The notes below the pieces were generated by a model. The model was not told where the DNA came from, made no database searches, and was given only the letters and a program-made list of their open reading frames with translations. 64,000 nt of DNA from Escherichia coli (GTDB taxonomy: Bacteria > Pseudomonadota > Gammaproteobacteria > Enterobacterales > Enterobacteriaceae): NCBI RefSeq assembly GCF_003334385.1, contig NZ_QOWN01000020.1; one strand, 5' to 3'. Below are positions 18,889 through 42,387 of the stretch, piece by piece. The number at the start of each line of letters is the position of its first letter. Position 1 is the first letter of the stretch. Made by a program: the position numbers and the translations under genes.

Positions 18889-19018
18889 AGTGTGGTAGAA
18901 TATCAGCTTACTATTGCTTTACGAAAGCGTATCCGGTGAAATAAAGTCAACCTTTAGTTGGTTAATGTTACACCAACAACGAAACCAACACGCCAGGCTT
19001 ATTCCTGTGGAGTTATAT

Positions 19019-19348
19019 ATGAGCGATAAAATTATTCACCTGACTGACGACAGTTTTGACACGGATGTACTCAAAGCGGACGGGGCGATCCTCGTCGATT
19101 TCTGGGCAGAGTGGTGCGGTCCGTGCAAAATGATCGCCCCGATTCTGGATGAAATCGCTGACGAATATCAGGGCAAACTGACCGTTGCAAAACTGAACAT
19201 CGATCAAAACCCTGGCACTGCGCCGAAATATGGCATCCGTGGTATCCCGACTCTGCTGCTGTTCAAAAACGGTGAAGTGGCGGCAACCAAAGTGGGTGCA
19301 CTGTCTAAAGGTCAGTTGAAAGAGTTCCTCGACGCTAACCTGGCGTAA
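19019..19348 (+). CDS. trxA: Thioredoxin 1
   Basis: ORF track begins 18914; trimmed to ATG 19019 ([13 protein letters not shown]), WCGPC active site. Confidence 0.95.
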
Positions 19349-35632: not shown

Positions 35633-35709
<77 letters not shown>

Positions 35710-35766
35710 TTTAGTCCCGGCGCTTGAGCTGCGGTGGTAGTAATACCGCGTAACAAGATTTGTAGT

Positions 35767-35843
35767 GGTGGCTATAGCTCAGTTGGTAGAGCCCTGGATT
35801 GTGATTCCAGTTGTCGTGGGTTCGAATCCCATTAGCCACCCCA
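35767..35843 (+). tRNA. hisR: tRNA-His (anticodon GUG), with extra 5' G
   Basis: GGTGGCTATAGCTCAGTTGG...GCCACCCCA, anticodon loop ATTGTGATT. Confidence 0.95.
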
Positions 35844-35863
35844 TTATTAGAAGTTGTGACAAT

Positions 35864-35950
35864 GCGAAGGTGGCGGAATTGGTAGACGCGCTAGCTTCAG
35901 GTGTTAGTGTCCTTACGGACGTGGGGGTTCAAGTCCCCCCCCTCGCACCA
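35864..35950 (+). tRNA. leuT: tRNA-Leu (anticodon CAG), long variable arm
   Basis: GCGAAGGTGGCGGAATTGG...CCCTCGCACCA, 87 nt. Confidence 0.95.
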
Positions 35951-35992
35951 CGACTTTAAAGAATTGAACTAAAAATTCAAAAAGCAGTATTT

Positions 35993-36069
35993 CGGCGAGT
36001 AGCGCAGCTTGGTAGCGCAACTGGTTTGGGACCAGTGGGTCGGAGGTTCGAATCCTCTCTCGCCGACCA
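35993..36069 (+). tRNA. proM: tRNA-Pro (anticodon UGG)
   Basis: CGGCGAGTAGCGCAGCTTGG...TCGCCGACCA, anticodon loop TTTGGGA. Confidence 0.95.
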
Positions 36070-39698: not shown

Positions 39699-39905
39699 GT
39701 AGATGCTCATTCCATCTCTTATGTTCGCCTTAGTGCCTCATAAACTCCGGAATGACGCAGAGCCGTTTACGGTGCTTATCGTCCACTGACAGATGTCGCT
39801 TATGCCTCATCAGACACCATGGACACAACGTTGAGTGAAGCACCCACTTGTTGTCATACAGACCTGTTTTAACGCCTGCTCCGTAATAAGAGCAGGCGTT
39901 TTTTT
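39699..39905 (+). ncRNA. glmZ: Small RNA GlmZ
   Basis: Recognised GTAGATGCTCATTCCATCTCTTATGTTCGCC...; ends in hairpin GCCTGCTCCGTAATAAGAGCAGGCG plus T7. Confidence 0.85.
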
Positions 39906-39952: not shown

Positions 39953-41149
39953 CTACTGTGGTGGGTTGTTCTGCAACGTTAACATCAAACCGTCGTGACG
40001 CATCGCTGCAGCTTCTTCCGGCTTGTGCAGTCTGTCCAGCGCGTCGGCAAGCCATGCGTAATCGTAGGCGTCCGGACGTTGTTTCAGCGCTGCGCGGAAG
40101 GCGAGCGATGCTTCCTGCCATTCTCCGTGCTTCATCAGTGACTGGCCCAGTGTGCTCCACAACAGCGGGCGATCGCCGACGTTTTTGATCTGCTGGCGCA
40201 GCACTTTTTCCAGCTGTTCCGGATTGTTGGTTTTCAGTCGAGGAATCGGCAGCAGTAGGCGATCGTCGTACTGGCGTTTCAGGCCATCGATGATAATTTG
40301 CTGGGCAGTATCATGATCGTCACATTCAATAAGATGTTCCGCCATTGCCACCTGCAACGCTACCTGATGACGCGTTTTCCGGCTTTGGTTTTTCCACCAG
40401 TTACGCAAACCTTCACTACCGTTATCGGCACGCGCCTGATCCATCAGGCCAATCCATGCCTGTTGTTCCAGCATTGCACGATGTTCTTCATCACCAACAT
40501 GGGCTTTCGCCATTGATGGGATGATATCCAGCAGAGAACTCCATGCACCTGTGCGGATATACGCCTGTTCCGCCAGACGTAATACTTCCGGATGGCGTGG
40601 CGTAACTTCCAGCAGCTTATCCACGCCGTGGCGTGCAGCATGGTTTTCATTACGGGCCAGTTGCAGACGTACACGGGTGATTTCTACCGGAATGGTGTCA
40701 TTGCCGGCCAGCTCCGCTGCGCGTTCCAGATGTTGGTTGGCGCGCGCTTCATCACCACGTTGTTGCGCGGCTTCGGCAGCCAGTAGATAGTTCACCACCG
40801 GTTGTTCAGCGTGATCGGCATTTTTCGCCATCAGCTTTTCAACTTGCTGATAATCGCCTTCCGCCAGTTTCAGCAGCGCCTGTTCGGTCTGCTTACGTGC
40901 ACGGCGACGCTTACGCCCGACAAACCACCCACGGGTGTGCGCGCCAGTGCGGAAGATCCGCCGCAGTAGCCACTCAATGGCAAACAGCACTACCATCGCC
41001 AGAATCAATATGATCGCCAGGCCCGTGACGCTGGTTTCGATATTGTAGTTGTCGGTCTGGATCAGCACATAACCCTGATGACCGGCAATCATCGGGCCAA
41101 CCACTATCCCCGCAATCAGCAACACAAAGAGTAATAACACTTTTAGCAT
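39953..41149 (-). CDS. hemY: HemY (TPR-containing inner membrane protein)
   Basis: 398-aa ORF with N-terminal TM helices. Confidence 0.9.
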   Translation of the reverse strand: MLKVLLLFVLLIAGIVVGPMIAGHQGYVLIQTDNYNIETSVTGLAIILILAMVVLFAIEWLLRRIFRTGAHTRGWFVGRKRRRARKQTEQALLKLAEGDYQQVEKLMAKNADHAEQPVVNYLLAAEAAQQRGDEARANQHLERAAELAGNDTIPVEITRVRLQLARNENHAARHGVDKLLEVTPRHPEVLRLAEQAYIRTGAWSSLLDIIPSMAKAHVGDEEHRAMLEQQAWIGLMDQARADNGSEGLRNWWKNQSRKTRHQVALQVAMAEHLIECDDHDTAQQIIIDGLKRQYDDRLLLPIPRLKTNNPEQLEKVLRQQIKNVGDRPLLWSTLGQSLMKHGEWQEASLAFRAALKQRPDAYDYAWLADALDRLHKPEEAAAMRHDGLMLTLQNNPPQ

Positions 41150-41151
41150 GG

Positions 41152-42387
41152 TTATTCTCCTTGCGGCGCGGCTGCCGGAGTATCACCTTGCGGTGCAGGT
41201 GCAGGTGCAGGTGCAGGTGCAGGTGCAGGTGCAGGTGCAGGTGCAGGTGCAGGTGCAGGTTTAGCTTCCGTTGTCCCTGCTGCCGGTTGTGCCAGCAGGT
41301 TACGCACGCGAGTCTGCATCAGTTTTTCCAGCATCGCCTGGCTTTGCAGGGTTTCCGGAAGATCCATCGAGATATTTTGCTGGCTTAACTGGTCCACCTC
41401 GTCGAGGAACGCTTTGGTGGTGGCATCATCAGTATCGTAGTAAGCACGTACCCAGGTGGAGACGTTCTCCAGCGCCTGGCGATAAGTCTCTTCCTGGTGA
41501 CGCGGTACAGCTTGTGCTGCGACCAGCAGGCGAGAGCGAATATTTTCGCGCAGATAGATATCCTGATTTGGCGCTAACAGCGGTACGGCGGTGTCATCAC
41601 GACGGCGAATCGTAATGAAGTTGTCCATAAAGTTCTGCCAGCTTTTTTGCAGATTGATACGCCATTCGCTGATGGAACTGGAAAGCTCTTCACCGTCTGA
41701 ATCCATCGGCGAACCATCGCTGTCATTATCGGCCAGACGCAGGTTATCTACCTGATTTGAAAGCTGATTAAGCTTAAGGATGATGCCGTCATAATCCACC
41801 TGCGATACTGCAGAAAGGCTGGCGATATCATCGGTAATTGCCCGACGAACGGTAATCAGACTCGGGTCATTCATATCCGCCAGGCTGGCGTCTGCACTTT
41901 TCAGCAACGCTGCAGCGGTCGTGACGTCCTGATCGCTCCACAGCTTCCGTCCGGCGAGTTTCACCAGAAAATCGGCCTGAGCCAGCAGCCAGGTTTTAGC
42001 ATCGCTGCCGGAAATGGTGGCGACCTTTTGTTGGACCTCATCCAACTGTTTTGCCAGCGTTTCTTGCTGACGATTCGCCTGCTTAAGCTGTGCAGCTTGT
42101 TGCTTAATAATGCCTTCCAGCTCGGCTTTTTGGCTCTCCTGGGCTTTTTGCAATGCCGTCAGTTGGTTAGCCAGGGCATCGCTGGTGGCGGTCTGATTGA
42201 CGGCCTGTTGTTTACCCCAGCCATACAAACCGACGCCCGCCGCCAGAGCAATAGCGATAGCCACCGCGCTGAGAATCAATGCGGTATTGTTCTTACTCTT
42301 TTTTTCTGTTGCGACAGGTTGTGACGTGGTGTCCACGGCCTCCCTGGTCTCTTCAACCACGGCGGAGGTTTTTTCTTGTTCCGTCAT
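41152..42387 (-). CDS. hemX: HemX (membrane-anchored coiled-coil protein) with extended Pro-Ala repeat
   Basis: 411-aa ORF; C-terminal K(PA)11[13 protein letters not shown]. Confidence 0.9.
41194..41259 (-). repeat. Perfect hexanucleotide tandem repeat (CCTGCA)x11 within hemX
   Basis: Eleven uninterrupted copies read directly; in frame, encoding (Pro-Ala)11. Confidence 0.95.

Follow-up and report, generated by a model that had tools for sequence, protein, structure and literature searches.

Within the 64-kb window, the whole stretch of Escherichia coli DNA that was analyzed, minus-strand open reading frames of 320, 246, 411 and 398 aa follow one another in an order that corresponds to the hemC-hemD-hemX-hemY arrangement, the 320- and 246-aa frames upstream of hemX being presumably hemC and hemD, as recognized from their sequence. 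The 411-aa frame had been called hemX in the original prediction, and this call is borne out both by a match to the Pfam HemX family (PF04375, E = 4.2e-108), which covers residues 130-363 of the protein and positions 2-235 of the 236 in the model, and by RefSeq, which annotates hemX upstream of hemY at the matching place. A hydrophobic segment lies near the N-terminus of HemX, at approximately residues 36-57, and is followed by long helices. RefSeq names the product uroporphyrinogen-III C-methyltransferase, but the Pfam scan of HemX returned just the HemX family and weak coiled-coil or membrane noise, with no methyltransferase domain; this enzymatic assignment was rejected since the tetrapyrrole methylase catalytic domain is absent from the scan, and the enzyme name is a legacy label. 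Just 2 nt separate the hemX stop codon from the hemY start codon, in a junction reading CAA GGA GAA TAA CC ATG, and the repeat array described below ends 44 nt upstream of that start. The same window also contains the GlmZ sRNA, at 39699-39905. The main features of the locus are as follows.

41152..42387, minus strand: hemX coding sequence, 411 aa plus stop (open reading frame list, Pfam, RefSeq annotation at the matching place)
39953..41149, minus strand: hemY coding sequence, 398 aa (open reading frame list, RefSeq annotation)
41157..41162, minus strand: putative hemY Shine-Dalgarno sequence AAGGAG, inside the last hemX codons (motif read directly)
41155..41298, minus strand: C-terminal tail of HemX, residues 364-411, past the end of the Pfam domain (alignment and structural model)
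41192..41260, minus strand: perfect hexanucleotide array, the variable part of typing locus CVN014 (Tandem Repeats Finder and direct reading)

Direct reading of the sequence places a perfect 6-nt array, with plus-strand unit GGTGCA, at window positions 41192-41260, and Tandem Repeats Finder describes it as having period 6 and 11.5 copies, with 100% matches, no indels and a score of 138. The runner-up in the window scores 60, and all other arrays have at most 3.1 copies. In gene sense the array reads (CCTGCA)11, from 41259 to 41194, in the frame of hemX. Counting codons from the TAA stop (41152-41154), it encodes (Pro-Ala)11, corresponding to HemX residues 377-398, with AAA (Lys376) before it and CCG CAA (Pro399, Gln400) after it, so that the protein reads TEAK(PA)11 and then continues for 13 residues to its C-terminus. 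The coordinates, unit, copy number and peptide originally predicted for the array all agree with direct reading, Tandem Repeats Finder and the open reading frame list. A chance origin of an 11-copy array is excluded in 64 kb, as it would involve 60 matching bases past the first unit, with a probability of approximately 4^-60 per position. Stems of the type TGCA·TGCA can form on both strands of the array (-17.5 and -14 kcal/mol). Their z-scores against shuffled sequences are merely -1.3 and -1.5, however, and slipped hairpins, while possible, were therefore discarded as an exceptional feature of the array and are not relied upon here.

The Pro-Ala tract falls outside the conserved part of HemX, as the Pfam domain stops at residue 363 and the tract begins at residue 377. 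When 12 enterobacterial HemX proteins are aligned, the invariant columns are unbroken up to P368 and reappear just at P397, A398, Q400, P404, A405 and P408-E411; between genera, residues 369-396 are unconserved and the last approximately 15 residues are conserved. The HemX tails of Salmonella have no PA repeat, and those of Citrobacter species have between one and four PA units, or else follow a PAA pattern. An AlphaFold2 model of HemX using the 12-sequence alignment as input was poor (mean pLDDT of 43) and was used solely to locate where secondary structure ends and where confidence falls off in the tail. The modeled helices end at residue 365, with no helix or strand beyond, and the pLDDT means of 10-residue blocks, ranging from 55 to 82 over residues 281-370, fall to about 30 over residues 371-411, which DSSP assigns to coil. 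The tail is accordingly predicted to be disordered, mainly on account of its composition and of the confidence drop after residue 367. The original prediction had interpreted the tract as a flexible linker, a reading that does not hold: with 13 residues after the tract and no domain downstream, this is a terminal tail and not an inter-domain linker. An inter-domain Pro-rich spacer of the TolA/TonB type was rejected on the same grounds, given that the Pfam match ends at residue 363 and that there is no second domain in the 13 residues past the tract. Alternating Pro-Ala runs are, moreover, usually regarded not as flexible but as extended and fairly stiff. We also observed a suspicious duplication of 85 residues, beginning at the repeat, in a metagenome-derived HemX protein of 485 aa (P0001).

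The distribution of repeat number was analyzed by searching a 351-bp query around the array against 5,426 complete E. coli genomes, and the locus was found in every one of them (5426/5426). Allele frequencies were estimated on two systematic samples of 60 genomes, taken as evenly spaced rows of the results, and hence refer to a collection biased toward clinical and laboratory strains. In both samples, the difference between match span and query is a multiple of 6 in 59 of the 60 genomes, the exception being NCTC11023. Spans for the 351-bp query (60 rows) range from 297 bp (K-12 XL1-Blue, MC4100) to 369 bp, with the remaining row at 270 bp. Bands of sequence identity (e.g. "≥99%: 247 genomes") were discarded as allele counts and match spans used instead, because BLAST alignments split in two pieces conceal the gap: genome H2, for instance, is 99.7% identical and yet carries 6 units. 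With a synthetic query of 25 units, the ranking of matches follows copy number, and evenly spaced rows therefore approximate quantiles. The 60-genome sample obtained with this query shows the following numbers of units.

0 units: 1/60 genomes (weakest match, last row by construction)
2 units: 10/60
3 units: 2/60
4 units: 5/60
5 units: 8/60
6 units: 10/60
7 units: 5/60
8 units: 4/60
9 units: 5/60
10 units: 3/60
11 units: 3/60
13 units: 1/60
15 units: 1/60
18 units: 2/60

The median of this sample is 6 units, the 11 units of the window stand at about its 90th percentile, and the most frequent allele reaches approximately 17%. Across the whole collection, 3,871 of the 5,426 genomes have at least 5 units, as determined by a coverage of at least 80% of the 25-unit query. 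The longest allele, with 18 units, is a lower bound on the maximum. In addition to the window, the following alleles were fetched and read.

K-12 XL1-Blue: 2 units, HemX of 393 aa
MLI023K1: 3 units, 395 aa
ZH193, which we take to belong to ST131: 5 units, 399 aa
REL606: 6 units, 401 aa
O157 Al Ain: 7 units, 403 aa
C9: 11 units, identical to the window, 411 aa
FDAARGOS_944: 14 units, 417 aa
2014EL-1343-2 and 13E0780: 18 units each, 425 aa
NCTC11023: tract deleted, 384 aa

The ten arrays that were read (nine fetched alleles and the window) consist of 100% pure CCTGCA and differ in unit number alone. In NCTC11023, the whole array and nine further codons are gone and the frame is kept, so that an open frame ending in PQGE and a stop codon is present in all ten arrays and in the tract-deletion allele. 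That the array would be variable in copy number while preserving the reading frame had been anticipated from the window, and is confirmed here by the reading of alleles with 2, 3, 5, 6, 7, 11, 14 and 18 units, with match spans implying a range of 2-18. Tabulation across strains in the 60-genome samples likewise yields no uniform copy number, but 2-18 units and one deletion. The K-12 protein, given in the same prediction as having about 393 aa and fewer units, does have 393 aa and 2 units, and its nine units fewer account exactly for the 18-aa difference with the protein of the window.

The array coincides with a locus that has long been used for strain typing. The primer sequences of CVN014, a 6-bp VNTR of generic E. 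coli MLVA, were taken, together with the sizing formula (product - 111)/6, as reproduced in Table 1 of PMC8143711, and both primers match the window on either side of the array.

41107..41130, plus strand: CVN014 forward primer site TCCCCGCAATCAGCAAMACAAAGA, in the first codons of hemY (0 mismatches, 0 matches expected by chance)
41264..41283, minus strand: CVN014 reverse primer site GCAGCRGGGACAACGGAAGC, in hemX just upstream, in gene sense, of the array (0 mismatches, 0 matches expected by chance)

The primer pair delimits a 177-bp amplicon, for which the formula returns (177-111)/6 = 11 repeats. The integers that it returns also equal the counted pure units in the seven other fetched alleles harboring both primer sites (2, 3, 5, 7, 11 and 14 units). 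Given the exact primer matches and the 111-bp offset that yields 11.0, the array of the window is CVN014, in its 11-repeat allele. PMC8143711, PMC5217547 and PMC3877011 trace the generic E. coli MLVA to which CVN014 belongs (GECM-7/GECM-10) to Lindstedt et al. 2007 and Løbersli et al. 2012. It is present in every isolate and is the most variable locus of the scheme, with 2-12 repeats (PMC5217547; PMC3877011). Its published frequencies, with 2 repeats in 13% of isolates, 5 in 13%, 6 in 20%, 9 in 17% and 11 in approximately 5% (PMC5217547), resemble the profile that we sampled. At the DNA level, the two loci are therefore identical, sharing primers, 6-bp unit, 111-bp offset, universality, allele range and frequency profile, and the complete genomes extend the published range to 18 units and to a full-deletion allele. 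CVN014 is the commonest single-locus variant within ST131 and other clones (PMC3407997); it has 5 or 6 repeats in ST131, and its 11-repeat allele has been described in a specific non-ST131 strain type (PMC3877011). The hemX repeat, being an established typing marker, is thus already known, and has served for E. coli fingerprinting since 2007, an identity that the original prediction had not made.

A literature search did not return any E. coli paper coupling hemX by name with a tandem repeat, MLVA or VNTR. Searches on the gene name miss CVN014 because MLVA papers use locus codes, and the connection was made here through those codes and the primers. In the MLVA papers examined, CVN014 appears as an anonymous locus, with no mention of its location in hemX or of the Pro-Ala tail. 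Separately, a Salmonella paper (PMC5183578) names hemX for a SNP alone.

The allelic pattern of the array, taken together with the behavior of other 6-bp VNTRs, suggests that its length changes by slippage during replication. In a perfect (CCTGCA)n array, the nascent strand would mispair out of register with its template, leading to the gain or loss of whole CCTGCA units. Mismatch repair is without effect on repeat units longer than 5 bp (PMC3477136, discussion). The six-base loops that would result escape its range of 1-4 nt, and the changes in array length would hence persist. Recombination between units may also contribute, by analogy with the 15-bp repeat of tolA, whose contractions are RecA-dependent (PMC3477136). 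The unit spans two codons, and its gain or loss therefore adds or removes Pro-Ala dipeptides without ever breaking the reading frame or the coupling to hemY. The tract lies in a low-complexity tail past the conserved HemX domain, with 13 residues following, and its length is for this reason apparently little constrained. Near-neutrality of repeat length is likewise suggested by the flat distribution of alleles and by the lack of conservation of the tract. CVN014 is, very probably, a nearly neutral, in-frame and fast-evolving length polymorphism generated by replication slippage, and not a functional switch.

Several observations bear on the dynamics of this process. The flank haplotype of the window (GCAGCAGGG / CAAGGTGAT) carries 3, 11 and 18 units in different genomes, while 14 and 18 units occur on a second haplotype and 2 and 7 units on a third. 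This variation of array length within flank haplotypes, together with the typing data, speaks for rapid and recurrent change at the locus. Nine of the ten 2-unit alleles sampled share one common flank haplotype, as is expected if very short arrays are stable. The codon pair in the array is invariably CCT-GCA, whereas neighboring prolines are encoded by CCG, a uniformity that points to amplification at the DNA level and not to selection on the peptide. The rates available for 6-bp VNTRs of E. coli O157 range from 1e-5 to 1e-3 per generation, and serial passage recorded changes, almost all of whole units, at 4e-5 to 2e-3 per generation (PMC3777172).

These O157:H7 VNTRs (TR1-TR7, Vhec, O157-n) resemble the hemX array in repeat class, in changing by whole units and in their use for typing. 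The hemX array is nonetheless not one of TR1-TR7, whose units are AAATAG, TGGCTC, TATCTT, TGCAAA, AAGGTG, an 18-mer and GACCAC (O157-37 was left out of this comparison), none of which can be obtained by rotating CCTGCA or its complement. The hemX locus is, furthermore, universal in E. coli, unlike several of the O157:H7 loci, which are specific to O157 or present null alleles. With phase-variable contingency loci the array shares the presence of hypermutable simple repeats within a gene and a dependence on slippage. In contrast to them, its unit is a multiple of three, the frame is always kept, the gene is not switched on and off, and HemX is no surface antigen. The array was therefore rejected as a phase-variable contingency locus, since 6 nt make two codons and the frame is open in every allele that was read. 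The repeat of tolA (Zhou, Michiels & Aertsen 2012, PMC3477136) resembles that of hemX in being in-frame and variable in copy number, in belonging to an E. coli envelope protein that crosses the inner membrane once, and in changing on short time scales. The tolA repeat, however, has a 15-bp unit located between functional domains, a predominant allele (13 units, 66%) and measured phenotypes (PMC3477136), as opposed to the 6-bp unit, terminal tail and flat allele distribution of hemX.

The likeness to tolA also underlies the first alternative to a nearly neutral polymorphism, which is that the Pro-Ala tract would be a selected, tunable spacer, with approximately 4 to 36 extended residues altering the reach of the conserved C-terminal end. 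This alternative, which we regard as unlikely, presupposes that HemX is a single-pass inner-membrane protein with its bulk in the periplasm, as is probably the case. The number of tolA repeats alters tolerance to deoxycholate, SDS, osmolarity and phage fd (PMC3477136), providing a precedent in the same species, and a role in the envelope is plausible for HemX, which has been described as a distant homologue of Mic60 that is devoid of the mitofilin domain and widespread in Gammaproteobacteria (bioRxiv 10.1101/2022.06.14.496148), and, among the interactors of YhcB/ZapG, as the one that E. coli, Yersinia and Vibrio have in common (PMC8163987), in two papers that do not discuss its tail. That alleles stay within 0-18 units could also mean that selection, and not just mutation, limits their length. 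Yet no single length predominates in the broad, flat allele distribution of hemX, in contrast to that of tolA. The tract, moreover, is missing in Salmonella, short or otherwise patterned in Citrobacter and naturally absent, with the frame intact, from E. coli NCTC11023. The occurrence of 3, 11 and 18 units on a single flank haplotype is what drift is expected to produce at a fast locus. Conservation of the last approximately 15 residues between genera might seem to favor a spacer, but that of the terminal PQGE is probably explained more simply by the overlap of the hemY ribosome-binding site with the last hemX codons than by protein function. A narrower form of this proposal, less likely still, is that 0 to 18 units (approximately 0 to 110 Å if extended) would tune the reach of a Mic60-like HemX to a periplasmic or outer-membrane partner. 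If true, lineage- or niche-specific optima would be anticipated, and CVN014 would be a contingency-like locus under selection and not a neutral marker. Should tail length affect the function of HemX, it would offer a way into the study of an envelope protein that is poorly understood; nothing that we found points that way.

A second alternative places the effect of the repeat on RNA, with its length changing mRNA folding at the hemX stop and hemY start and thereby tuning hemY expression. The proximity of the array to the hemY start, the location of the Shine-Dalgarno sequence within the last hemX codons and its full pairing in the folding model all leave room for an effect of local structure on hemY translation. 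When the hemX 3' end was folded together with the hemY start in a partition-function calculation, however, every allele from n = 0 to n = 25 had the same probabilities of being unpaired (0.00 for the Shine-Dalgarno sequence and 0.64 for the AUG), and the array pairs with itself in the model. Ribosomes completing hemX would, in addition, unfold the region at any repeat number, and we hence consider this alternative very improbable. Lastly, repeats can be mis-assembled, and the duplication in P0001 does start at the repeat, but an assembly or sequencing artefact, which the original prediction had named as a possible refutation, is scarcely credible for the 11-copy array, given that its 66 bp are shorter than ordinary reads, that the independent complete genome C9 (L008) has an identical 11-copy allele with identical flanks, that 11 copies are likewise found in other independently assembled complete genomes of the samples, and that published PCR sizing reports the 11-repeat allele of CVN014 both among isolates at large (PMC5217547) and in the non-ST131 strain type mentioned above (PMC3877011).

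A nearly neutral length polymorphism is therefore the reading that we retain for CVN014. The tabulation of its copy number and its sizing by PCR across strains have been routine for years. What the present analysis adds is the connection of an anonymous marker with the hemX gene and its Pro-Ala tail, and an allelic range of 0-18 units in complete genomes. For HemX, this connection means that the differences in protein length between strains (384-425 aa) come from the repeat and not from annotation errors. For E. coli, it assigns a gene to the most discriminating locus of generic MLVA, which serves to track outbreaks and clones, for instance within ST131.

One length variant was the hemX allele of E. 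coli NCTC11023, in which the entire Pro-Ala array and the nine codons that follow it are gone with the reading frame kept.

NZ_LS483297.1 4601237-4601706: NCTC11023 hemX allele (locus L003), equivalent to the stretch at about 41176-41256 of the window

As read from the locus sequence, this is a natural allele encoding a HemX of 384 aa, which also carries a T-to-I change. The deletion junction reads AAACC|GGCAGCC, which suggests that the sequence was lost between short CC/GCA microhomologies. The reverse-primer site of CVN014, the VNTR locus that corresponds to the array in E. coli MLVA, is missing from this allele, and NCTC11023 would therefore be scored as a null allele if typed by this scheme.

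Variants were also seen among other HemX proteins in the protein comparison. A 485-aa protein from an ENA metagenome contig (P0001) contains an internal 85-residue duplication (HQEETYRQ...TEAKPA repeated) that starts at the Pro-Ala repeat, and its Pro-Ala tract is interrupted (PAPAPAPTPAPAPAP); the duplication is either real or a misassembly at the VNTR. In a Citrobacter-like HemX of 435 aa from JGI (P0086), the Ala/Pro tail slips out of frame (…AAAPAGRAPPPLPLKHRRQ…) and continues into the hemY region, the result of a sequencing error or of a frameshift within the low-complexity tail. The 413-aa HemX of Salmonella Berta (P0057) carries a tandem duplication (24 residues, twice) covering the end of the transmembrane segment, and is a separate length variant with no relation to the Pro-Ala tract.

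The RefSeq product name for HemX, shared by the matching loci L001-L010, is 'uroporphyrinogen-III C-methyltransferase'. No methyltransferase domain was found by a Pfam scan of the window HemX (41152-42387, minus strand), whose sole hits were the HemX family, helices of coiled-coil-like character and a membrane segment. The product name appears to be a mis-annotation carried over from older records.

In the search of complete E. coli genomes, the hemX/hemY junction was matched at two places in at least one genome; a single match among 5,430 was plasmid-borne, and is a stray second copy of the chromosomal hemX/hemY region.

Rfam matches placed several RNA elements in the window, including GlmZ, which lies between aslA and hemY just as it does in K-12.

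1-327 (window start): 5S rRNA, then two tRNAs
3546-3838: 'Rev39 5'UTR' element
18949-19048: trxA 5'-UTR thermometer
35633-36066: four-tRNA cluster
39699-39905, plus strand: GlmZ (SraJ) sRNA, full-length match, 218 bits

For the junction between the two genes, an RNA comprising the 3' end of hemX and the start of hemY was folded computationally.

41110-41165, minus strand: hemX stop / hemY start region

The hemY Shine-Dalgarno sequence (AAGGAG) was predicted to be fully paired in every allele (probability of being unpaired, 0.00), its partner, judged by eye from the predicted fold, being hemY codons about 6-9 (UUACUCUUUG). Since the Shine-Dalgarno is completely paired in this predicted fold, the model suggests that hemY translation may rely on coupling with ribosomes that finish hemX.
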